Positions 3,894-25,267 of a DNA stretch of 33,504 bases are shown here, one piece after another. Under the pieces are notes generated by a model. That model had not been told where the DNA came from and did not search any database. It saw only the letters and a list, made by a program, of their open reading frames with translations. Every line of letters starts with the position of its first letter. Within the stretch, counting starts at the first letter, position 1. This DNA comes from a virus (taxonomy: Duplodnaviria > Heunggongvirae > Uroviricota > Caudoviricetes), in the IMG/VR virus record IMGVR_UViG_2695420456_000021; one strand, written 5' to 3'. The position numbers and the translations under genes were made by a program.

Positions 3894-4165
3894 GTATTCG
3901 TATCGAAATTGGCGAACGTTATGTCGTTACCAGTGACAGCTTTCAGTTTATTCTCCACGAGAAAAAGAGAGCGGAAAGCGGTAAAAACGCCGGCCAGGAA
4001 TGGCTGGCGGTGGTTGGTTATTACCCGAAATTAAGCCAGCTCGTTTCCGGCCTGATGCATCACGATATTCTGACCGGAAGCGCAAAATCTTTTGCTGATT
4101 TAAACGCGCAGGTTGAGCAACTCAGCAAGCGTTGTTCAGAGGCTTTTGGCTCACATGGCCGTTAA
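3890..4165 (+). CDS. Hypothetical early-operon protein (P2 orf83 position)
   Basis: ORF track; overlaps upstream stop and the downstream A start. Confidence 0.5.
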   Translation: MSIRIEIGERYVVTSDSFQFILHEKKRAESGKNAGQEWLAVVGYYPKLSQLVSGLMHHDILTGSAKSFADLNAQVEQLSKRCSEAFGSHGR

Positions 4166-6230
4166 AGCCTCCGGGCGTTTTGTCCCTCCGTCAGCATTTG
4201 CCGCAGGCACCGGTAAGACGTTTACCGGTGCTTATGCATGGAACGCGCCACGCGAGGCCGTCGGGCGCGAAAGACCCCTTACACGTGACGAGATGCGTCA
4301 GGTGCAAGGTGTTTTATCCACGATTAACCGCCTGCCTTACTTTTTGCGTTCGCTGTTTACTTCACGCTATGACTACATCCGGCGCAATAAAAGCCCGGTG
4401 CACGGGTTTTATTTCCTCACATCCACTTTTCAGCGTCGTTTATGGCCGCGCATTGAGCGCGTGAATCAGCGCCATGAAATGAACACCGACGCGTCGTTGC
4501 TGTTTCTGGCAGAGCGTGGCCACTATGCGCGCCTGCCTGGAATGAATGACAAGGAGCTGAAAAAGTTTGCCGCCCGTATCTCATCGCAGCTTTTCATGAT
4601 GTATGAGGAACTCTGCGATGCATGGGTTGATGCGCATGGTGAAAAAGAATCGCTGTTTACGGATGAGGCGCAGGCTCACCTGTATGGTCATGTTGCTGGC
4701 GCTGCACGTGCTTTCAATATTTCCCCGCTCTACTGGAAAAAATACCGTAAAGGACAGATGACCACGAGGCAGGCATATTCTGCCATTGCCCGTCTGTTTA
4801 ACGATGAGTGGTGGATTAGTCAGCTTAAAGGCCAGCGTATGCGCTGGCATGAGGCGTTACTGATTGCTGTCGGGGAGGTCAATAAAGACCGTTCTCCTTA
4901 TGCCAGTAAACATGCCATTCGTGATGTGCGTGCGCGCCGCCAGGCAAATCTGGAATTTCTTAAATCGTGTGACCTTGAAAACAGGGAAACCGGCGAGCGC
5001 ATCGACCTTATCAGTAAGGTGATGGGCAGTATTTCTAATCCAGAAATTCGCCGGATGGAGCTGATGAACACCATTGCCGGTATTGAGCGTTACGCCGCCG
5101 CAGAGGGTGATGTGGGGATATTTATCACGCTTACCGCGCCGTCAAAGTATCACCCGACACGTCAGGTCGGAAAAGGCGAAAGTAAAACCGTCCAGCTAAA
5201 TCATGGCTGGAACGATGAGGCATTTAATCCAAAGGATGCGCAGCGTTATCTCTGCCGTATCTGGAGCCTGATGCGCACGGCATTCAAGGATAATGATTTA
5301 CAGGTCTACGGTTTGCGTGTCGTCGAGCCACACCACGACGGAACGCCGCACTGGCATATGATGCTTTTTTGTCATCCACGCCAGCGTAACCAGATTATCG
5401 AAACCATGCGTCGCTACGCGCTCAAAGAGGATGGCGACGAAAGAGGAGCTGCGCGAAACCGTTTTCAGGCAAAACACCTTAACCGGGGCGGTGCTGCGGG
5501 GTATATCGCGAAATACATTTCAAAAAATATCGACGGATATGCACTGGATGGTCAGCTCGATAATGATACCGGCAGACCGCTGAAAGACACTGCCGCGGCT
5601 GTTACCGCATGGGCGTCAACGTGGCGCATCCCGCAATTTAAAACGGTTGGCCTGCCGACAATGGGAGCTTACCGTGAACTACGCAAATTGCCTCGCGGCG
5701 TCAGTATTGCTGATGAGTTTGACGAACGCGTCGAGGCTGCTCGCGCTGCCGCAGACAGTGGTGATTTTGCGTTGTATATCAGCGCGCAGGGTGGGGCAAA
5801 TGTCCCGCGCGATTGTCAGACTGTCAGGGTTGCCCGTAGCCCGTCGGATGACGTTAACGAGTACGAGGAAGAAGTCGAGAGAGTGGTCGGCATTTACGCG
5901 CCGCATCTCGGCGCGCGTCATATTCATATCACCAGAACGACGGACTGGCGCATTGTGCCGAAAGTTCCGGTCGTTGAGCCTTTGACTTTAAAAAGCGGCA
6001 TCGCCGCGCCTCGGAGTCCTGTCAATAACTGTGGAAAGCTCACTGGTGGTGATACTTCGTTACCGGCTCCCACACCTTCTGAGCACGCCGCAGCAGTGTT
6101 GGATTTGATTGATATAGGGGTGGTTAGTTGGAATGATGCTGAGGTGATGACAGTTCTTAGGAAGAGGTTAAAAGATTACTCACGGGAATTGATGGTATTC
6201 AAGGGAAGGGCTAGCCAACGCCCAATCTGA
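4155..6230 (+). CDS. A: Rolling-circle replication initiator, P2 A-like (HUH endonuclease)
   Basis: HUH-like 'TPHWHMMLF' and tyrosine motif 'YIAKYISK'. Track start 4113 is a TTG; first in-frame ATG is 4155 (MAVKASGRF...). Start uncertain. Confidence 0.9.
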   Translation: MAVKASGRFVPPSAFAAGTGKTFTGAYAWNAPREAVGRERPLTRDEMRQVQGVLSTINRLPYFLRSLFTSRYDYIRRNKSPVHGFYFLTSTFQRRLWPRIERVNQRHEMNTDASLLFLAERGHYARLPGMNDKELKKFAARISSQLFMMYEELCDAWVDAHGEKESLFTDEAQAHLYGHVAGAARAFNISPLYWKKYRKGQMTTRQAYSAIARLFNDEWWISQLKGQRMRWHEALLIAVGEVNKDRSPYASKHAIRDVRARRQANLEFLKSCDLENRETGERIDLISKVMGSISNPEIRRMELMNTIAGIERYAAAEGDVGIFITLTAPSKYHPTRQVGKGESKTVQLNHGWNDEAFNPKDAQRYLCRIWSLMRTAFKDNDLQVYGLRVVEPHHDGTPHWHMMLFCHPRQRNQIIETMRRYALKEDGDERGAARNRFQAKHLNRGGAAGYIAKYISKNIDGYALDGQLDNDTGRPLKDTAAAVTAWASTWRIPQFKTVGLPTMGAYRELRKLPRGVSIADEFDERVEAARAAADSGDFALYISAQGGANVPRDCQTVRVARSPSDDVNEYEEEVERVVGIYAPHLGARHIHITRTTDWRIVPKVPVVEPLTLKSGIAAPRSPVNNCGKLTGGDTSLPAPTPSEHAAAVLDLIDIGVVSWNDAEVMTVLRKRLKDYSRELMVFKGRASQRPI
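6006..6025 (+). other. Candidate replication origin/nick site inside A (gcgcctcggagtcctgtcaa)
   Basis: From memory, P2/186-family ori lies in the 3' part of gene A with a sequence like this; not verified. Confidence 0.3.
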
Positions 6231-6402
6231 TTATGTTTTGTAATGATAAGTTAATGCTGAATGAGTGGCTCGCGCATAACCTTGCGGGAAAAAGAGCATA
6301 TTATGTACAGTTTTGAGGTTGGCTAGAGAGGATGGGCGAGATAGTTTGTGTTTGTGTGGGTTTGAGAAGTTTGATGCGCACATCAAAAATTGATACAACT
6401 GA

Positions 6403-6431
6403 TTGAAAAAATGATAAAAAAGCTGTTAAAT
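6403..6431 (+). promoter_or_regulatory. Putative sigma70 promoter for the cargo cassette (TTGAAA, 17-bp spacer, TTAAAT)
   Basis: Hexamers read from sequence about 25 bp upstream of ATG 6456; AT-rich context makes chance matches likely. Confidence 0.3.
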
Positions 6432-6455
6432 GCGTCAGTTTTCTAAGGGGGGAAG

Positions 6456-7586
6456 ATGAAAAAAATAACCAAGAGAGAAAGAGAGAGAGATATTTTACGA
6501 TCCTATTTACATCGTACAGGAAGAGATGTTGTATCTGCAGGGCGCTCTAAGATTAATCCTATTTCAAAAGCATCAAAAATAAATCGTTGGATAAATGCGC
6601 AAATTAAAGATGGATTAAATTGCGAAATAAGGAAAAATAGAGACCTTTTCCTTACTTTACCTAAAAAGATGAACTTTTCAAGTAATTACCATCGTACAAT
6701 GCAGGCCATACAAACGATTAGGCATCTTACGGGGCGGAAGATATTTAATAACCAATGTTATCGTCTTTGTTTTGTTGACTTTTCGAAGATTGAATATATT
6801 TCTGCATCTGCCGCATTGGTATTGACCGCGGAATTATCAAAATGGGATGATTCGGTAAGGCAACGCATTCGCCCAAAAGTGAAAACGTGGAATAAAAACA
6901 TACTCTCTCAATTTGATGAGTTGGGTTTTTTTGACTTATTTAGAAATAAAGATAGTTTTGAGCTTGAAAAAGAAAAGGAACCAAGTAATATCCGTTTTGT
7001 TAAGTATATGAAAGGACATTTACATGATGATGAAAAAACTCAGCATTTAAAAAAAGAAATAAAGCGTATTGTGGGAGAAGACCTTGGTAAATGGACTTTC
7101 CTATACAGTGGTTTGTCCGAAGCTATTACAAATGTTGTTCATCATGCTTATCCAGATAATAAAGGCTATCATGAGCATGATAAAAAATGGTATTTAACTG
7201 CTTCATATGATAGTTCAAGTAGAATAATAAAAGTAGTGTTTTATGATCAAGGTATTACAATTCCTGGGTCTTTGCCGGAATCTAAACTCCATGAAAAGGT
7301 TTTAAATTACCTTTCGAAGTTACCGCTTGCAGAACGAAAAAGAGATGAACAATTGTTAAAGGCTGCAGTTGAAATCAAACGTTCTAGTACGGGGGAAGAG
7401 GATCGGGGTAAAGGCTTGCAGGACTTGTTGGAGTTCATAAAGCAACGTGGTGAAGGTTATCTTTCAATTATGAGTGGTAAAGGCCTTTACAAATACTCAC
7501 AACATGATAAAAAATCTGAGGTAAAATCAGTAAGCTTCGCTCTGCCTGTTTGTGGTACACTTATAGTATGGAGTACAAAGCTATGA
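6456..7586 (+). CDS. Cargo protein 1 (376 aa): N-terminal STAS-like segment plus C-terminal GHKL/HATPase_c-like ATPase (anti-sigma-factor-kinase-like)
   Basis: RBS aagggggg before ATG. Motifs 'EAITNVVHHAY' (N-box-like), 'YDQGITIPG' (G1-like), 'DRGKGLQDL' (G2-like); N-terminal 'VDFSKIEYISASAALVL' resembles the STAS core. No Walker A. AT-rich. Confidence 0.75.
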   Translation: MKKITKRERERDILRSYLHRTGRDVVSAGRSKINPISKASKINRWINAQIKDGLNCEIRKNRDLFLTLPKKMNFSSNYHRTMQAIQTIRHLTGRKIFNNQCYRLCFVDFSKIEYISASAALVLTAELSKWDDSVRQRIRPKVKTWNKNILSQFDELGFFDLFRNKDSFELEKEKEPSNIRFVKYMKGHLHDDEKTQHLKKEIKRIVGEDLGKWTFLYSGLSEAITNVVHHAYPDNKGYHEHDKKWYLTASYDSSSRIIKVVFYDQGITIPGSLPESKLHEKVLNYLSKLPLAERKRDEQLLKAAVEIKRSSTGEEDRGKGLQDLLEFIKQRGEGYLSIMSGKGLYKYSQHDKKSEVKSVSFALPVCGTLIVWSTKL

Positions 7587-7972
7587 TTACTAGATTGGTT
7601 GCTAGCCTCATGAAAACATTGAAGATTGGTTCAGAGTTCTCGAAAGTTCCCAGAGGCCGCTATCGTACTGACGGGACAGCAAGTGGTGAACGGTTTAGAG
7701 AAGATTTCTTAAGGAAGCGTCTAAGCTTGCTTTCTGCTGGGGAAAAATTGCAGATAGTCATCGACGATGATGTCGAAGGATATGGTTCGTCTTTTTTGGT
7801 GGAGGGCTTTGCGGGCATGGTAAAATATGGATATATGCATGCCAATGAATTATTGTCTAAAATTGAAATTAAATATACTAATCCTGATTTTGATTTCTAT
7901 AAAAAGAAAATAGAACAATATATCAACGAGGCGCAGTTTAATTCGAAACGATATGAGCCAACAGTCGAATAA
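7583..7972 (+). CDS. Cargo protein 2 (129 aa): small STAS-like / DUF4325-like protein
   Basis: ATG 7583 overlaps the gene-1 stop as ATGA; ggag 8-9 nt upstream. Motif 'IVIDDDVEGYGSSFLVEGF'. Track start 7550 lacks an RBS. Confidence 0.65.
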   Translation: MITRLVASLMKTLKIGSEFSKVPRGRYRTDGTASGERFREDFLRKRLSLLSAGEKLQIVIDDDVEGYGSSFLVEGFAGMVKYGYMHANELLSKIEIKYTNPDFDFYKKKIEQYINEAQFNSKRYEPTVE

Positions 7973-8615
7973 TCCGATGTTTATTTTAGGTGAGAGTTCT
8001 GGTGAGTTCTCACCTAGTTTGCTTTTTATCAAGAAGGATAATGAAGAAGGCCTGAGTGCTACTCATGCAGTTAAGGATATTAATACGGTAATTGAAGTAG
8101 CTAGTTCTAATATTGTTGATGCAATACGGCATCCACCTGAAACGCCTATTTTATCGTCATCACTTATTACGGCTCTTATTAGTACTATTTGTGCGGCTAC
8201 TGCCGCATTTGCATATAATAAAGTCCATTGGCGTTCTGTTGTTAAACGGGAGACTAAAACCAAACTCCTGGAGAGTATTTCAGATGTGGTTAATGAGTTG
8301 CGTTCTGATGCTATTAGTTATTGGTTGAAGGGGTATTCAAAAAAGTCGGCGAAGTCTCTCTTAGAAGAGGAAATGAGAATTAAGGCGAGTTTAAATATAA
8401 TAAATTCGACTATAACAATATATGTTCAGCAAGAGTCGCGATGGAAAAGAAAGGATATTGAAGCTCAGTTAAGGGTTTTTCATGACGAACTTTTTGATAT
8501 TATAACAGGTGATGATTTTGAGTCTCAGGCAAGGAAGCAGGATAAGGCAAAGGTTTCTGCTATTTCTACAAAGTGTGTGGCTTTTCGCGTTTTATTAAAT
8601 ACCATCAAGTTTTAA
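7953..8615 (+). CDS. Cargo protein 3 (220 aa): predicted single-pass membrane protein, candidate effector
   Basis: Start overlaps the gene-2 3' end by 20 nt; hydrophobic stretch 'PILSSSLITALISTICAATAAFAY' (about residues 65-88); charged C-terminal region. Alternative start ATG 7977. Confidence 0.6.
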   Translation: MSQQSNNPMFILGESSGEFSPSLLFIKKDNEEGLSATHAVKDINTVIEVASSNIVDAIRHPPETPILSSSLITALISTICAATAAFAYNKVHWRSVVKRETKTKLLESISDVVNELRSDAISYWLKGYSKKSAKSLLEEEMRIKASLNIINSTITIYVQQESRWKRKDIEAQLRVFHDELFDIITGDDFESQARKQDKAKVSAISTKCVAFRVLLNTIKF

Positions 8616-8747
8616 GATAGCCATGCATGAGTTTGGTGCATGAAAATGCATGAGGTTTTACGAATTATTTTGGCTAAAATCAGCCTGCCCTGACTGGCTA
8701 CGGCAGATATCATGCACCTGCATTAAAACCGCCCCATGAAGCGGGCG

Positions 8748-8766
8748 GGCGAGGCGGGGAAAGCAC
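8748..8766. other. cos site (19-nt cohesive-end sequence ggcgaggcggggaaagcac)
   Basis: Matches the P2 cohesive-end sequence as I recall it; sits between the cargo island and Q as in P2. Confidence 0.6.
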
Positions 8767-8909
8767 TGCGCGCTGGCGGTGGTGCTGATTTTATTTTTTC
8801 AGCGTCTGAGCGCGTCGTGATGGCGTTTAAATTGTTCGCCGGGGCCGTTGGTGTGTCTGCGGGGTGTTTTGTGCGGTGGTGAGCGTATGAGGGCGTGATG
8901 ACGGGGTGT

Positions 8910-8936: not shown

Positions 8937-9971
8937 TCAGCCGTTGTCAGTGTCCAGTGAGTAGTTTTTAAAGCGGATGACTTCCTGGCCGAGCCAGCCG
9001 TTTATCTCGCGGATCCTGTCCTGTAGCGGGATAAGCTCATTGCGGACAAAGACCTTTGCCACTTTCTCAATATCGCCCAGCGACCCGACGTTCTCCGGCT
9101 TGCCGCCCATCAACTGAAAGGGGATGCGGTGCGCGTCCAGCAGGTCAGCGGCGCTGGCTTTTTTGATATTAAAAAAATCGTCCTTCGTTGCCACTTCACT
9201 GAGCGGGATAATTTTAATGCCGTCGGCTTTCCCCTGTGGGGCATAGAGAAACAGGTTTTTAAAGTTGTTGCGGCCTTTCGACTTCACCATGTTTTCGCGG
9301 AGCATTTCGATATCGTTGCGATCCTGCACGGCATCGGTGACGTACATGATGTATCCGGCATGTGCGCCGTTTTCGTAATACTTGCGGCGGAACAGCGTGG
9401 CTGATTCATTCAGCCAGGCAGAGTTAAGGGCGCTGAGATATTCCGGCAGGCCGTACAGCTCCTGATTGATATCCGGCTCCAGCAGGTGAAACACGGAGCC
9501 GGGCGTGAAAGGTGTTGGCTCGTTGAAGGACGGCACCCACCAGTAAATATCTTCTTCCACACCACGGCGGGTATATTTTGCCGGTGAGGTTTCCAGTCTG
9601 ATGATCTTACCGGTGGTGCTGTAACGCTTTTCCAGAAACGCATTACCGAACACCAGAAAATCCAGCACAAAGCGGCTGAAATCCTGCTGGGAAAGCCACG
9701 GATGCGGGATAAATGTCGAGGCCAGAATATTACGTTTGACGTAAATCGGGGAGCTGTGATGCACGGCAGCACGCAGGCTTTTTGCCAGACCGGTAAAGCT
9801 GACCGGTGGCTCATACCATCTGCCGTTACTGATGCACTCGACGTAATCCAGAATGTCACGGCGATCGAGTACCGGCACCGGCTCACCAAAGGTGAATGCC
9901 TCCATTTTCGGGGCGCTGGCGGTCATTGTTTTTGCCGCTGGTCGCGGTGTTTTCCCTTTTTTCTTGCTCAT
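8937..9971 (-). CDS. Q: Portal protein, P2 Q-like (344 aa)
   Basis: ORF track; same length as P2 Q; start overlaps the P stop (TGATG). Confidence 0.95.
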   Translation of the reverse strand: MSKKKGKTPRPAAKTMTASAPKMEAFTFGEPVPVLDRRDILDYVECISNGRWYEPPVSFTGLAKSLRAAVHHSSPIYVKRNILASTFIPHPWLSQQDFSRFVLDFLVFGNAFLEKRYSTTGKIIRLETSPAKYTRRGVEEDIYWWVPSFNEPTPFTPGSVFHLLEPDINQELYGLPEYLSALNSAWLNESATLFRRKYYENGAHAGYIMYVTDAVQDRNDIEMLRENMVKSKGRNNFKNLFLYAPQGKADGIKIIPLSEVATKDDFFNIKKASAADLLDAHRIPFQLMGGKPENVGSLGDIEKVAKVFVRNELIPLQDRIREINGWLGQEVIRFKNYSLDTDNG

Positions 9972-20603: not shown

Positions 20604-22853
20604 ATGAGCACAAAATTCAGAACCGTTATCACCACTGCCGGTGCAGCAAAGCTGGCAGCGGCAACCGCGCCGGGAGGGCGGAAGGTCAACATTACCACGA
20701 TGGCCGTCGGGGATGGCGGTGGTAAATTGCCTGTCCCGGATGCCGGACAGACCGGGCTTATCCACGAAGTCTGGCGACATGCGCTGAACAAAATCAGCCA
20801 GGACAAACGAAACAGTAATTATATTATCGCAGAGCTGGTTATTCCGCCGGAGGTGGGCGGTTTCTGGATGCGTGAGCTTGGCCTGTACGATGATGCTGGA
20901 ACGTTAATTGCCGTGGCGAACATGGCCGAAAGTTATAAGCCAGCTCTTGCCGAAGGCTCAGGGCGTTCGCAGACCTGTCGCATGGTCATCATCGTCAGCA
21001 GTGTGGCCTCAGTGGCGCTGACCATTGACACCACAACGGTGATGGCGACGCAGGATTACGTTGATGACAAAATTGCAGAGCATGAACAGTCACGACGTCA
21101 CCCGGACGCCTCGCTGACCGCAAAAGGTTTTACTCAGTTAAGCAATGCGACCAACAGCACGTCTGAAACACTGGCCGCAACGCCGAAAGCGGTTAAGGCC
21201 GCCTATGACCTGGCTAACGGGAAATACACTGCGCAGGATGCCACCACAGCGCGAAAAGGCCTTGTCCAGCTCAGTAGCGCCACCAACAGCACGTCTGAAA
21301 CGCTCGCCGCAACACCAAAAGCGGTAAAGGCAGCATATGACCTTGCTAACGGGAAATACACTGCACAGGACGCCACCACAGCGCGAAAAGGTCTTGTCCA
21401 GCTCAGTAGCGCCACCAACAGCGATTCTGAAACGCTTGCGGCAACGCCAAAGGCGGTAAAGGCAGCATATGACCTCGCTAACGGGAAATATACCGCACAG
21501 GATGCCACCACAGCGCGAAAAGGTCTTGTCCAGCTCAGTAGCGCCACCAACAGTGATTCTGAAACGCTGGCTGCAACACCAAAAGCGGTGAAGTCTGCCT
21601 ATGACAATGCTGAAAAACGTCTTCAGAAAGATCAGAACGGTGCGGATATTCCTGATAAAGGACGCTTCCTGAGTAACATTAATGTTTACAGCAAAGGTGA
21701 AGTGGATAAGAAAAAGGGAATGCGAAAGTATTCGTTTGCAGCCCCTGCAAATGTCGTTGCCGGGAAGTGGTATCCCGTTATCTTTCGCCGTGCTGCCAGC
21801 CTTTCAGGAGAAATGGCATCCCGCGTCGTTATTTCCACTGGTTGTTATAACAGCGATTATGTAATGAATAACTGCGAGTTTAATGGCATGGTTATGCCCG
21901 GAGGCTGGACTGATCGTGGTTCATATGCGGCAGGTTATTTCTGGACGTATCAGACTAATGAGCGTTCAATTCATTCCATTGTTACAAGCCTGAAAGATGA
22001 TGATGTATGTAGTGTTTTTTATGTTGAAGCCAGAGCTTTCCCTGTACAAATTCTTGCAGAGGAAGGGCTAACGGTTATTGTTCCGACAGAGGATTATGTC
22101 GTCGGTCAGACGACATATAAGTGGGGGGCAACTAATCCCGCTACAGAAAGCACGAACGCGCAGGCTATTCTGGATTTTAAAAATGGGCGCGGTTATTACT
22201 GCTCACATCCATTTATTTCCAGCCTTTCAGGAAATGCTGCAACAGCAACAAAGTTAGCGAACGCAAGAAATATTAATGGTGTCAGATTTGATGGCTCTGC
22301 CGATATAAATATTAATACACTGGTTTCCAGAAACCGTGTTACTGCATTAGGTGGGAGCGTAAAGGGGACACCAGGTATTCAGATGTATGAGGCATACAAC
22401 AATGGCTACCCAACAGCCTATGGTAATGTGCTTCATCTCACTGGTGTAACCGCAGTAGGAGAGGGTGAGTTACTTATTGGCTGGAGTGGAACCAGCGGTG
22501 CTCATGCTCCGGCATATATTCGCTCCCGACGAGATACCACAGATGCTAACTGGTCTGGATGGGCGCAACTATATACAACTGCTCATAAACCCTCAGCGGG
22601 AGATGTTGGTGCATACACCAAAGCTGAGTCAGATTCACGTTATGTGAGAGACATGCGGCTGGGCGGTGCATCTACATATAAACCAGCAAATAATGGTATT
22701 ACATGGACGCATCAGGCTCCGTCAGGTTGCGTATATACCGGCATTATTGTTCAGGATACCGGCTCAAACTCTGCCGATAACATTGGTGGCGTATATTACA
22801 GACCGGTGCAGAAATACATTAACGGGACATGGTATAACGTGGCGCAGGTATAA
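20604..22853 (+). CDS. H: Tail fiber protein, P2 H-like (749 aa) with internal tandem repeats and compositionally distinct C-terminal domain
   Basis: ORF track; conserved N-terminus (MSTKFRTVITTAGAAKLAAA...); repeats at about 21109-21600; GC drops after about 21650. Confidence 0.9.
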   Translation: MSTKFRTVITTAGAAKLAAATAPGGRKVNITTMAVGDGGGKLPVPDAGQTGLIHEVWRHALNKISQDKRNSNYIIAELVIPPEVGGFWMRELGLYDDAGTLIAVANMAESYKPALAEGSGRSQTCRMVIIVSSVASVALTIDTTTVMATQDYVDDKIAEHEQSRRHPDASLTAKGFTQLSNATNSTSETLAATPKAVKAAYDLANGKYTAQDATTARKGLVQLSSATNSTSETLAATPKAVKAAYDLANGKYTAQDATTARKGLVQLSSATNSDSETLAATPKAVKAAYDLANGKYTAQDATTARKGLVQLSSATNSDSETLAATPKAVKSAYDNAEKRLQKDQNGADIPDKGRFLSNINVYSKGEVDKKKGMRKYSFAAPANVVAGKWYPVIFRRAASLSGEMASRVVISTGCYNSDYVMNNCEFNGMVMPGGWTDRGSYAAGYFWTYQTNERSIHSIVTSLKDDDVCSVFYVEARAFPVQILAEEGLTVIVPTEDYVVGQTTYKWGATNPATESTNAQAILDFKNGRGYYCSHPFISSLSGNAATATKLANARNINGVRFDGSADININTLVSRNRVTALGGSVKGTPGIQMYEAYNNGYPTAYGNVLHLTGVTAVGEGELLIGWSGTSGAHAPAYIRSRRDTTDANWSGWAQLYTTAHKPSAGDVGAYTKAESDSRYVRDMRLGGASTYKPANNGITWTHQAPSGCVYTGIIVQDTGSNSADNIGGVYYRPVQKYINGTWYNVAQV
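21109..21600 (+). repeat. In-frame tandem repeat, 132-bp unit (44 aa), about 3.7 copies, within tail fiber gene H
   Basis: Unit boundaries at 21241, 21373, 21505; encoded repeat '...SSATNS(T/D)SETLAATPKAVKAAYDLANGKYTAQDATTARKGLVQL'. Confidence 0.85.
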
Positions 22854-23384: not shown

Positions 23385-23570
23385 GTTGTATGAACTCTGG
23401 TGTGAGCTTACATATCTATGGCACAGAGTAAAGCCTAATCTGACAGTCCGCTCTGTGCCAGGAGCGGAAGTTGCCAAGAGAACTCTTGCAAAGGTATGAT
23501 AACGTAGGTGCTAAATAATCATGAACCATAATAAATTAAAGGTTTTTAAGTTAACTCTATGGCGTTTCTT

Positions 23571-23599
23571 TTGCATGATGATTTTTTATTTATTATATA
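23571..23599 (+). promoter_or_regulatory. Putative sigma70 promoter (TTGCAT, 17-bp spacer, TATATA) upstream of the Z/fun-position cargo gene
   Basis: Hexamers read from sequence; AT-rich context. Confidence 0.3.
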
Positions 23600-23665
23600 A
23601 AGCTTAAATATACATAATATTTAGCTTCATTTTTTTAGGTATTTTAAAGATTTAGAGGAATGTGA

Positions 23666-25009
23666 ATGGCTACTTATGCTTCTTATTTACCAGAATCACA
23701 AATTATCACTTTGTGCAAGGATTTCCCAGCGTTTACTGATCCTGAAAAATTAGATGGATTCATTAATCCAGAACAGTTTGGCGTGTTTTTTCATGAGTGG
23801 ATTCATTTTCTTCACAATATTTCCACAATTAATGGGTTTTCTATTTTTTGCACGCAAAACATCCTGTGGTCTAATTTTCGCTGGGCAATGGACAATCAGG
23901 ATGTATGTCTTGGTTCAAATGACATGGATCCAGCACATATCGAATCAAACAAAAATTTTCTCAGTTACATTCGTTCCAATAGGAGTCTGCATAAATGTAA
24001 CTTACCTTATTATGTAAAAGTAAACGACTTGTATTTTGAGGATGCAATAATCCATGACATGGAGGTTGCTGACGGTAGTGTTATATGTACATCATTAATA
24101 AAGTGTAGAATTTCTCATTCTGAAAACAAATACGATCTAGATTTAGGCGTGCTTGAAATACTTGAATCCGCAGCTTTTATGCTTGAATGTAAGTGTATTA
24201 ATGCGATGAATGGCTTCCCTCAAGAGGCACCCTTTTATCCGTATCATACTATCAAAGGCTTAGCAGCGAAAATTGCTCCGTCATTAAATGATGAAGATAT
24301 TATTTGTTGTATGTTAGCTTCTTTGCAATCTAATAACCCTCCCCAAGTATTATTCAATCTACTACATAAATGTGAATTATTACATTCTGATTGTAGGTAT
24401 GAACATCTAGTGGCGGAGGTGAAAAAACAATTAAGCGAACAAGATCAAATAATAAGCGAGTCACTTAATCAAATAATTCAAATGATTCCTGTTGATGAAC
24501 CGATGGGAAACTTTATCAAGCTTACTCTTAACAGAATAAGTAACAATTTGAACTATAGAAAGCAAAAACCGTTTTTTGAGTTAGATATAATAAAAAAAAT
24601 AGCAGAAAAAACTGAGTTTATGAATGAAGTAATACAGAAATTCGGTGGTTGCACTATCATCCAGGTAAGACATGGAGATGATAATGAACCACAGCGTGAT
24701 ATTATGTATGACTTTTGCTTACCTGAAAATAATGATTCAATTTTATTTGGTTCGAAAATGCTACGCGCTTGTTTTCACTTTATATTTATTCACTTTAAAC
24801 TTTCTGGTGAAATCATGAAGACAGAAGAATTAAATATTTCGCCGCGTAATAAATGCCCATTTTATACTGTTTGCTGTGCATCAATTCGAGCTAATAATAG
24901 TAATATCTGCGCTGAATCCCCTTGGAAATCAATGTCTATTGATGACAACAAAGGTTGTTATTATGCAGCAGCGATTAAAGCTACTAACCCACCAGTTTTG
25001 CCGGATTAA
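23666..25009 (+). CDS. Cargo protein (447 aa) with N-terminal HExxH motif and Cys-rich C-terminal half; possible Zn-dependent hydrolase, function unknown
   Basis: RBS agagga before ATG; 'FFHEWIHFLH' at residues 41-50 (codons about 23792-23806); many Cys pairs; about 32% GC in a sampled line; occupies the P2 Z/fun position. Confidence 0.7.
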   Translation: MATYASYLPESQIITLCKDFPAFTDPEKLDGFINPEQFGVFFHEWIHFLHNISTINGFSIFCTQNILWSNFRWAMDNQDVCLGSNDMDPAHIESNKNFLSYIRSNRSLHKCNLPYYVKVNDLYFEDAIIHDMEVADGSVICTSLIKCRISHSENKYDLDLGVLEILESAAFMLECKCINAMNGFPQEAPFYPYHTIKGLAAKIAPSLNDEDIICCMLASLQSNNPPQVLFNLLHKCELLHSDCRYEHLVAEVKKQLSEQDQIISESLNQIIQMIPVDEPMGNFIKLTLNRISNNLNYRKQKPFFELDIIKKIAEKTEFMNEVIQKFGGCTIIQVRHGDDNEPQRDIMYDFCLPENNDSILFGSKMLRACFHFIFIHFKLSGEIMKTEELNISPRNKCPFYTVCCASIRANNSNICAESPWKSMSIDDNKGCYYAAAIKATNPPVLPD

Positions 25010-25145
25010 GAATAGTGTTCTTTCTGATAAATATAAAATATTTAAGGTCAGGTCTGCTTATCGCTCAAAGCAGACTGTCAGATTTGATAACGTTTGGGCT
25101 ATGTAAACCGTCAGTTGGAAAATGAGTGAGTGCAAGTCAGGACAG

Positions 25146-25167
25146 GCGGGCGGATTGCCCGCCTTTT
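25146..25167 (+). terminator. Probable intrinsic terminator after the cargo gene (ggcgggc/gcccgcc stem then TTTT)
   Basis: Stem-loop plus T-run read from sequence, about 140 bp downstream of the stop. Confidence 0.4.
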
Positions 25168-25267
25168 CTTTATCTGTTGTTTCATCCACTGACCAGCCAG
25201 GTCAAATAGCGCCTCATGCTCTGCACAACAGAAAATAGTTGCACCCATTAACCACGGAGTTAAACGG

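Follow-up and report, generated by a model that had tools for sequence, protein, structure and literature searches.

What do three AT-rich genes do in the place where P2 carries tin and old? The question is raised by a virus sequence of 33,504 nucleotides (IMG/VR record IMGVR_UViG_2695420456_000021, hereafter the window), in which a sequence-only reading had picked out a candidate undescribed anti-phage cassette between gene A and cos. Experiments have established the P2 hotspot as a reservoir of defence genes, and about a quarter of such hotspots hold maintenance functions, e.g. partition systems, instead of defence (Rousset 2022). The three genes are called K, S and M here, and their coordinates are collected in Table 1.

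Table 1. Features of the cassette and its flanks, in window positions
Feature	Positions	Strand	Basis
P2 A-type replication endonuclease, left flank	4113..6230	+	ORF and translation; RefSeq 'replication endonuclease'
AT-rich cassette leader	6231..6455	+	sequence
K	6456-7586	+	ORF, 376 aa
S	7583-7972	+	ORF, 129 aa counted from ATG
M	7953-8615	+	ORF, 220 aa
RNA hairpin, 14-bp stem, 4-nt loop, U-rich tail	7986..8017	+	terminator scan
Right boundary, cos-proximal phage backbone	8616..8766		megablast/blastn matches and sequence
P2-type portal protein Q, right flank	8937..9971	-	ORF; RefSeq 'phage portal protein'

A variable insert in the tin/old slot

The AT-rich island proposed between A and cos is confirmed by 500-nt windows and by the flanking ORFs. 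GC content is 0.35-0.38 at 6501-8500, whereas the flanks have 0.51-0.55 towards A and 0.51-0.61 towards Q/P. Being flanked by A and cos/Q, the cassette does occupy the tin/old slot of P2. The left end of the variable DNA falls within the A ORF, near 6098-6113, rather than at the A stop codon. This refinement is drawn from the point at which E. coli P2-like A genes cease to match, since they align only as far as query positions 699-714 of 5400-6230, and from the RefSeq annotation of A as a pseudogene with a missing C-terminus in a 99.6%-identical cassette carrier. The final ~120-130 nt of the A ORF already lie within variable DNA. On the right, 8707-8747 is common to Peduovirus genome ends (megablast/blastn, with matches restricted to query positions 2477-2517) and is followed at 8748-8766 by GGCGAGGCGGGGAAAGCAC, which we take to be the cos 19-mer of P2. 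Of 5426 complete E. coli genomes, 1708 contain the A 3' region and 15 contain the cassette, which establishes the cassette as a variable insert. No sequenced phage in the phage genome collection carries the cassette DNA, and at the protein level only two remote matches were found there.

Old and Tin occupy the A-Q/cos slot as the cassette does, and are unrelated to it in sequence. The earlier statements that the products are neither Old nor Tin and belong to no named system both stood: K, S and M have no match at E ≤ 1 in PADLOC-DB v2.0.0, and none among the systems tested in Rousset 2022. Among the latter, 3HP ('hp+hp+hp') likewise consists of three hypothetical genes in the A-Q/cos slot of P2-like phages. 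It was rejected as a counterpart, as the HMMs gave at most 3.2 bits (E ≥ 0.024 in a four-sequence database), and its proteins differ from K, S and M in size and domains. The word 'undescribed' holds in part. No PADLOC or tested-system match exists, but the locus is already listed in Table S5A as 'hypothetical + DUF4325 + hypothetical' (Rousset 2022), and an architecture of this class, with a STAS-GHKL kinase, a DUF4325 STAS protein and an effector, was published in 2026 as VapKSC. DefensePredictor scores M as a 'predicted novel defense gene' (mean log-odds 7.6); its HHblits column alone offers a PD-Lambda-6 lead for M (probability 87.2, coverage 0.28), to which PADLOC returns no match. In the same screen VPUS, a three-gene 'hypothetical, STAS-like, hypothetical' candidate whose accessions, WP_000060412, WP_001244589 and WP_000154254, are not those of the cassette, was negative.

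Three coupled genes and their products

Three overlapping genes on one strand had been read as an operon, and both overlaps are found exactly as claimed, ATGA at 7583-7586 between K and S and 20 nt at 7953-7972 between S and M. These overlaps couple the three genes translationally. A purine-rich, Shine-Dalgarno-like run, AAGGGGGGAAG, lies at 6445-6455, directly before the K start. The promoter scan of the leader returned a weak sigma-70-like match (6362-6390, 9/12) that is not above shuffled expectation. An operator upstream of K was considered for a 7-bp inverted repeat (6370-6376/6381-6387) and rejected, the repeat at 6370-6387 not being conserved at other loci. A terminator after M (8612-8700) was also rejected, its fold being no better than those of shuffles (z -0.26). 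The RNA hairpin lies 14 nt past the S stop codon and within codons 12-22 of M, with a free energy of -18.4 kcal/mol (z -4.4). It occurs in four other enterobacterial cassettes as well (z -3.4 to -5.7), with compensatory double changes in 5 of the 14 pairs, and is a candidate attenuator or 3' stabiliser whose effect would be to hold M below K and S.

Domain and fold comparisons agree with the initial description of K as a STAS plus GHKL-ATPase-like protein. A basic helical N-terminus (aa 1-55) is followed by a STAS-like region (aa ~56-186) and a GHKL ATPase/kinase region (aa ~191-376). The N-terminal part forms two helices, carries a net charge of about +11 over 65 aa and contains no detected HTH. 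The GHKL ATP-binding motifs, namely the N-box E222/N226/H230 (nt 7119-7148), G1 D264-x-G266 (nt 7245-7253) and G2 R317-G318-x-G320 (nt 7404-7415), are all invariant in the homologue alignment. The nearest solved folds are those of the partner-switching serine kinases SpoIIAB, RsbW and SiaB, and K is predicted to be a serine kinase. Its homologues fall into 342 clusters, many of them ~50% identical over the full length, and NCBIfam gives just sub-threshold RsbW matches. Among PHROGs, phrog_3364 is matched by K and the C-terminus of phrog_5816 by S; neither family has an assigned function. PDB sequence searches with single sequences and profiles returned nothing significant for K, S or M.

S had been called a small STAS-like protein, and a match to Pfam PF14213 (DUF4325; E 3e-5, above the gathering score) supports this. 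The STAS-like core spans aa 35-102 and is followed by a conserved C-terminal tail (aa 103-129). Homologues form 156 clusters, and most of them begin at the equivalent of Met10 (nt 7610). Across 53 sequences, S69, S70 and the motif GSSFLxExFAG do not vary. Located at the canonical phospho-acceptor position, Ser69-Ser70 (nt 7787-7792) is a candidate phospho-acceptor.

For M, hydropathy and the AF2 model bear out a single-pass membrane protein. A variable, acidic and disordered N-terminus (aa 1-65) precedes one TM helix (aa ~66-88, nt 8148-8216, by hydropathy) and a cytoplasmic four-helix bundle (aa ~95-219, nt 8235-8609, in the AF2 model). The model reaches pLDDT 80-94 over aa 70-220, on a shallow alignment of 25 sequences, none of them less than 46% identical. 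When 33 third genes were aligned, Tyr123-Trp124 (nt 8319-8324) proved invariant, and the N-terminal part proved extremely variable in length and sequence; a TGDDFES motif lies at nt 8505-8525. In many relatives the TM helix stands at residue 1-20, leaving no extracytoplasmic part there. The family comprises 241 clusters at 50% identity, all of 138-279 aa and with zero fusions. Pfam, PADLOC and PDB hold no relatives of M, and no toxic or pore-forming domain is recognisable in it. The fold search returned generic helical bundles only (best E 0.13), from which no function could be drawn.

Relatives among kinase/STAS systems

A GHKL serine kinase paired with a single-domain STAS substrate is the arrangement of SpoIIAB-SpoIIAA and RsbW-RsbV, and the Ser dyad of S is located where Ser58 sits in SpoIIAA. 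The cassette differs from these pairs in the STAS domain fused to the kinase, in the membrane protein as third partner and in its status as prophage cargo. The likeness raises the alternative that the cassette is a partner-switching regulator and not a killer. M would then be a membrane input or anchor, and S would antagonise K, which would sequester a regulator, be it a sigma factor of host or phage, a repressor or an anti-repressor. The output would be a change in gene expression, for instance in prophage maintenance or induction or in a host stress response. The structures nearest to K are anti-sigma factors, whose output is indeed sigma-factor sequestration, and M, lacking a toxic signature, weakly resembles helical bundles that include sensor-type four-helix bundles. 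However, sigma factors and PP2C phosphatases are absent from the cassette and the window flanks and from the recurring neighbour families of 34 loci.

The pair CapK-CapS, which is purely regulatory, bears on the same alternative. CapK is built as HTH-STAS-GHKL and K as a basic two-helix N-terminus followed by STAS and GHKL; both join an N-terminal extension and a STAS domain to a GHKL kinase paired with a STAS substrate. The N-box Asn of CapK, N218, is at almost the same position as N226 of K, and hhalign pairs the two residues at 35% probability. The 'SSF' phospho-site motif of S resembles 'DSS54F' of CapS (PMC13373217 supplement), and R-M systems often stand immediately upstream both of CapK-CapS and of the kin of the cassette. 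[quoted passage not shown] Nor does an immune operon follow the cassette, only M and then cos/Q, so that no defence operon lies downstream for it to control. With the neighbours also devoid of a DNA-binding domain, a regulatory role of this kind is considered unlikely.

The closest known system is VapKSC, with a different effector and only remote sequence similarity. Its three genes encode a kinase, an antitoxin of the DUF4325 family and a toxin with a PIN domain (Chambers et al., EMBO J 2026, PMC13373217). It protects against a phage, in a way that requires the kinase, the Ser and the toxin, and VapS is a proven antitoxin (PMC13373217). In each system three genes form an operon that opens with a STAS-GHKL kinase, followed by a small STAS protein of the DUF4325 family, and each is found in mobile or defence contexts in Escherichia. 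VapS and S match PF14213 above the gathering score (VapS at E 3e-17); each has a conserved Ser and ends in a short tail. The third genes differ: VapC is a PIN nuclease, whereas M is a single-pass membrane four-helix bundle without nuclease motifs, in which neither PIN nor any other Pfam match was found. K is also 74 aa longer than VapK, with its basic N-terminal extension.

The two kinases align by hhalign at 83% probability (E 9e-6) in the GHKL domain only, leaving the STAS halves unaligned; the K HMM scores VapK at 16.7 bits, and BLASTP between them gives E 0.026. The VapK query in these comparisons was transcribed from the AF3 file of PMC13373217 and has no exact counterpart in the protein collection, so that one or two residues of the copy may be wrong, with no material effect on the profile comparison; the VapS transcription was confirmed in that collection. 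Similarity of S to VapS or CapS is not significant, and a local hhalign pairs S69 with S48 of VapS. S forms a sequence family separate from VapS, and K appears to do so from VapK. VapK and CapK respond to ssDNA or DNA damage, and VapK is activated by ssDNA through the conserved aromatic residue F54 (PMC13373217). The candidate counterpart of this VapK/CapK contact residue in K, position 114, is variable by eye in the consensus. Because the aromatic residue has no obviously conserved counterpart, the trigger of K may differ from ssDNA.

A mobile triad and a proposed phosphorylation-gated switch

Synteny of K, S and M extends to at least 34 species of several phyla, and the order of the triad is kept in 34 of 36 distinct loci (Proteobacteria, Verrucomicrobia, Planctomycetes). 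Besides the P2 A/Q hotspot, it is carried by a 186-like prophage, by lambdoid prophages and by a Tn3 element, where it adjoins an AAA_15/21 ATPase. In some genomes it directly follows type I R-M, Zorya ZorD or mad3/LmuB-like ATPase genes. Housekeeping neighbours at many of the 34 genomic loci make the defence-island signal a moderate one. In the cultured Marinobacter phage AS1 the triad adjoins cI within the immunity region, a position that would suit a regulator. Its movement as a self-contained unit, however, takes it through unrelated prophages, transposons and chromosomes, which is more in keeping with an autonomous module.

Such travel with many kinds of mobile element would also be expected of an addiction or stabilisation module of toxin-antitoxin type, mainly retaining the prophage or mobile element and with an anti-phage effect that is absent or incidental. 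The layout is TA-like, with a tight operon, a small middle protein, the candidate toxin last and a dosage-lowering hairpin, and maintenance functions do make up about a quarter of P2 hotspot cargo. Yet simple post-segregational killing could dispense with a dedicated kinase that senses input through a conserved STAS domain. The triad is also chromosomal without mobile-element hallmarks in the fetched flanks, e.g. at the Cycloclasticus locus L002, and VapKSC, of homologous logic, protects against phage. An addiction module is for these reasons regarded as very improbable.

Folds, catalytic motifs, the Ser dyad, M topology, the strict synteny of the triad and its settings on mobile elements and beside defence genes are all shown computationally, and from them we infer a defence function and a mechanism. 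The cassette may be a mobile three-component immune module of the abortive-infection type that acts like a phosphorylation-gated toxin-antitoxin system, a tentative reading to which a little under an even chance is given. Its defence part gains support from the conservation of the triad as a unit, its presence in prophage hotspots and on mobile elements, its defence neighbours and the DefensePredictor call on M. In the resting state, S would bind the cytoplasmic four-helix bundle of M and keep M inactive, while the hairpin past the S stop codon probably ensures that less M is made than K and S. An infection-linked cue, possibly ssDNA or DNA damage as for CapK and VapK, would switch K on, and active K would phosphorylate S at Ser69 or Ser70. 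Phosphorylated S would release M, and free M would act as the toxin, perturbing the inner membrane by oligomerisation or depolarisation, so that the infected cell stops phage production and the phage is contained.

Phosphorylation gating is favoured by the invariant GHKL motifs of K, by its fold neighbours among partner-switching Ser kinases and by its upstream STAS-like domain. On the side of S, it is favoured by membership in the Pfam family of VapS, by Ser-Ser at the SpoIIAA/CapS/VapS phosphosite and by the conserved C-terminal extension. The conserved hairpin with its compensatory changes points the same way, and VapKSC provides a precedent that such logic works and protects against phage. 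It is weakened by the lack of a recognisable toxic domain in M, the remote similarity to VapK and CapK, the negative result for VPUS, should that candidate be related, and the shallow M alignment.

Defence might also be wired otherwise, with K as the effector that phosphorylates phage or host proteins, S as a buffer or regulator and M as a membrane localiser, e.g. for sensing DNA entry. Stk2-type systems are examples of defence by a kinase that phosphorylates many targets. The extreme variability of the M N-terminus is what would be expected of a surface under phage-driven selection, and the basic N-terminus of K could bind nucleic acid. Nevertheless, GHKL kinases of the SpoIIAB/RsbW type are highly specific for their STAS partner, and periplasmic sensing cannot be core to a family in which many M relatives have no extracytoplasmic part. 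There is therefore only a slim chance that K is itself the effector.

Returning to phosphorylation gating, a wider proposition is that K-S-M represents autonomous immunity across several phyla, in which a STAS-GHKL kinase, answering a cue that is not necessarily ssDNA, phosphorylates a DUF4325 protein and thereby unleashes membrane-anchored four-helix-bundle effectors. This is held more doubtfully, as a possibility well short of even chances. If true, the kinase/STAS partner switch would be a general, effector-swappable trigger of cell-suicide immunity, with PIN as the effector in VapKSC and a membrane effector here. M, whose 241 clusters show no known domain and no fusions, is a candidate new membrane effector family and would then define a new membrane-toxin fold, and the hairpin within the M start is a candidate for RNA-level control of toxin dosage. 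Should the model be right, the VapKSC-type switch would be modular and would join the families that swap sensors and effectors, such as CBASS, retrons and Thoeris.

A rare AT-rich insert at the gpA-gpQ hotspot

The window is a P2-like prophage whose integration site adjoins yegR. Between A and Q, GC content falls to 0.35-0.38 across 6501-8500 versus 0.51-0.61 in both flanks, confirming the AT-rich stretch of the sequence-only reading. The three genes of the cassette, encoding the predicted kinase K, the STAS-like protein S and the membrane protein M, are joined by an ATGA overlap at 7583-7586 and a 20-nt overlap at 7953-7972, exactly as had been described. Downstream of M lies what we take to be the cos 19-mer of P2, preceded by a segment (8707-8747) that also occurs at the ends of sequenced Peduovirus genomes. 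This places the cassette between A and cos.

Coordinates of features in the window
Feature	Position	Strand	Length or remark
Replication gene A	4113-6230	+	
Inverted repeat TTTGATG-N4-CATCAAA	6370-6387		perfect, 7 bp
K	6456-7586	+	376 aa
S	7583-7972	+	129 aa
M	7953-8615	+	220 aa
RNA hairpin	7986-8017	+	14-bp stem
Presumed cos 19-mer	8748-8766		
Portal gene Q	8937-9971	-	
Tail-fibre ORF	20604-22853	+	four tandem repeats
Second AT-rich island	23480-25200		31-34% GC
Second-island ORF	23666-25009	+	447 aa

A resembles the other P2-like A genes of E. coli only up to about 6098-6113, the last ~120-130 nt of the ORF (6098-6230) being unlike all of them, and RefSeq annotates A as a pseudogene without a complete C-terminus in a 99.6%-identical carrier strain. 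Variable DNA therefore begins inside the A ORF. The cargo recombination junction thus falls within A, which thereby gains a novel C-terminal tail. The insert is rare and variable: among 5426 complete E. coli genomes, 1708 contain the A 3' region whereas only 15 carry the whole cassette. The inverted repeat overlaps the sole promoter-like match upstream of K and shows no conservation upstream of K in other loci.

The gpA-gpQ hotspot is an experimentally established store of anti-phage systems (Rousset et al., 2022, PMC9122126). The same cassette is entered in Table S5A of that study as "hypothetical + DUF4325 + hypothetical" (WP_032254602 + WP_032254618 + WP_126646822/WP_032254601), and is absent from the systems cloned there. 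The locus had thus been listed already, and "undescribed" is only partly right. The validated "hp+hp+hp" system of the same study consists of proteins unrelated to K, S and M. Its Tables S1/S5 also record 'HATPase_c | DUF4325' (system 69, 9 occurrences) at the P4 hotspot, and 'hypothetical + hypothetical + DUF4325 + DinI' and the possibly VapKSC-like 'hypothetical + hypothetical + PIN_12 + DinI' at the P2 hotspot. Such GHKL/DUF4325 combinations at P2 and P4 hotspots suggest a wider superfamily of kinase/STAS cargo.

Elsewhere in the window, the second AT-rich island occupies the P2 Z/fun position, with the tail-fibre assembly gene on one side and the sheath gene on the other. It occurs in only 13 of the 5426 genomes, and its six top-scoring listed carriers differ from all 15 listed cassette carriers. 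Its 447-aa protein has no match in Pfam, PADLOC or PDB, and the ORF is a second candidate cargo gene. Within the tail-fibre ORF, a ~43-aa segment (…ATNSxSETLAATPKAVKAAYDLANGKYTAQDATTARKGLVQLS…) is repeated in tandem, in four copies that are nearly identical.

Domain organization of K, S and M

Against Pfam, K gave only a sub-threshold match to HATPase_c_2. The GHKL motif set is complete and invariant in an alignment of 51 homologues: N-box (E222, N226, H230), G1 (D264-x-G266) and G2 (R317-G318-x-G320). The AlphaFold2 model (pLDDT 77, pTM 0.82) has SpoIIAB as its top solved neighbour (Foldseek, prob 1.00). Together these predict a GHKL kinase of the anti-sigma type, preceded by a STAS-like domain and, at the N-terminus, a basic helical region. 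All 342 homologue clusters of K are annotated "hypothetical".

S belongs to Pfam DUF4325 ("STAS-like"), scoring above gathering, and its family comprises 156 homologue clusters. Across 53 homologues, G68-S69-S70-F71-L72-x-E74-x-F76-A77-G78 forms an invariant motif and the C-terminal tail outside the domain (aa 103-129) is conserved; most start at the equivalent of Met10.

M has no relatives in Pfam, PADLOC, NCBIfam or PDB searches. It contains a single hydrophobic segment (aa 66-84/88), modelled as a TM helix leading into a four-helix bundle (pLDDT 80-94 over aa 70-220), with residues 1-42 disordered; fold searches returned generic helical bundles only (best E 0.13). The bundle would be cytoplasmic by the positive-inside rule, because a Lys/Arg-rich stretch follows the helix. 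In distant members the TM helix lies at the extreme N-terminus, and the family core is therefore helix plus bundle, in which Tyr123-Trp124 is invariant and T-G-x-x-F-E near-invariant. Among 1.84 billion representative proteins 241 relatives were found, all of 138-279 aa and free of domain fusions. The domains first read from the sequence, STAS plus GHKL, small STAS-like and single-pass membrane, are thus all upheld. That M merely localises K, the latter being the effector of a defence system, seems quite improbable.

An M variant (WP_032254601.1) is listed by DefensePredictor as a "predicted novel defense gene" (Table S10, mean log-odds 7.59; PMC13092281), with a remote HHblits match to PD-Lambda-6 (prob 87.2, coverage 0.28), a link not recovered against PADLOC models. 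In the same study VPUS, a three-gene "hypothetical, STAS-like, hypothetical" candidate of 1871 bp with accessions other than those of K-S-M, tested non-defensive (Table S6).

A hairpin begins 14 nt past the S stop codon, within poorly conserved N-terminal codons of M (U-rich tail, -18.4 kcal/mol, z -4.4). It is kept in four more enterobacterial cassettes (L047-L050 4034-4065; z -3.4 to -5.7), five in all, and 5 of its 14 pairs show compensatory changes. It could be an attenuator or a 3' stabiliser of the transcript, keeping K and S in excess over M, and its conservation supports a toxin-last, low-dosage design.

Conservation and mobility of the triad

Scanning a single genome per species gave 34 loci, which are spread over Gamma-, Beta-, Delta- and Alphaproteobacteria, Verrucomicrobia, Planctomycetes and one Rickettsiaceae MAG. 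K is followed by S in every complete locus except L029, which has a truncated K ORF; the third gene encodes 146-257 aa, and in 34 of 36 distinct loci its product is an M-family member. K-S-M is a conserved, mobile unit, found in a Cycloclasticus chromosome, a Serratia 186-like prophage (L005), Klebsiella (L008) and Cronobacter lambdoid prophages, another P2-like prophage with DinI, a Tn3-family element adjoining an AAA_15/21 ATPase, a Yersinia island and the cultured temperate Marinobacter phage AS1. An addiction module serving such mobile elements is a reading to which we attach little probability.

The Serratia prophage uses the same A/portal slot. Its order is A, cos, cassette, Q (cos upstream of K; L005 5801-5838), compared with A, cassette, cos, Q in the window (cos downstream of M; 8739-8774); thus the same cassette is placed on either side of cos. 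In the Klebsiella prophage, the 3' remnant of a P2-type portal gene (L008 8410-8961, minus strand; 54% aa identity over 140 aa) lies 6 nt past the M stop codon, a footprint left when the block moved out of a P2/186-type hotspot. The AS1 triad (L045 2884-5262, AS1_42 to AS1_39) is directly downstream of and co-oriented with a cI-like repressor gene, divergent from cro, a position typical of lysogen-expressed genes.

Among the genomic loci, three from Idiomarinaceae have a type I R-M HsdR gene immediately upstream, that of Vibrio sp. AND4 has Zorya ZorD there and two others a mad3/LmuB-like ATPase; integrases recur nearby. Because many other neighbours are housekeeping genes, the defence-island signal, though real, is moderate. 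The cassette is probably some form of anti-phage or abortive-infection module.

A proposed VapKSC-like switch with a distinct third component

The nearest described system is VapKSC, a three-gene operon whose STAS-GHKL kinase, VapK, acts on Ser48 of VapS, an antitoxin of DUF4325 type; this phosphorylation releases the PIN toxin VapC, and the system protects against phage Bas42 (Chambers et al., EMBO J 2026, PMC13373217). In the related pair, CapK (HTH-STAS-GHKL), once activated by ssDNA, phosphorylates CapS, a repressor of STAS-wHTH architecture. The VapS, VapK, CapK and CapS sequences were taken from the supplementary files of that paper; VapS is exact in the protein collection, and CapK N218/W68 and CapS S54 agree with the published numbering. 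The K profile aligns with the VapK GHKL domain (hhalign 83%, E 9e-6), although the VapK sequence used has no exact match in the collection and may hold an error. With CapK the alignment (35%) covers the N-box and G1 region only, pairing N226 with N218. VapS and S are both DUF4325 members. By hhalign, S showed no significant similarity to VapS or CapS; S69 falls on VapS S48 in a local, non-significant alignment, and "GS69S70F" parallels CapS "DSS54F" and SpoIIAA "DSS58G". From the kinase, DUF4325 and motif comparisons, K-S-M shares its architecture and folds, and probably its logic, with VapKSC. It differs in being a separate sequence family with a different third component, which lacks the defining feature of VapC; the wHTH and downstream-operon features of CapS are missing too. 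A partner switch that is solely regulatory, in which M would be the input or anchor, is unlikely.

In the defence reading, S would at rest be bound to the cytoplasmic bundle of M, keeping M inactive. An infection cue would switch on K; analogy points to ssDNA or DNA damage as a candidate, but the aromatic contact residue of VapK/CapK has no evident conservation in K. Activated K would phosphorylate S at Ser69 or Ser70, and freed M would damage membrane function, aborting infection. We give this whole scheme slightly less than an even chance.

Gene layout, domains and hotspot position bear out the anatomy and candidate status first assigned to the cassette, which is best filed as a predicted VapKSC-like kinase/STAS switch joined to a novel membrane effector family. 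Defence cargo at the P2 hotspot will not surprise specialists; the cassette offers a second case, clean and open to testing, of a signalling logic that was described very recently, together with a putative new effector family and candidate RNA dosage control.
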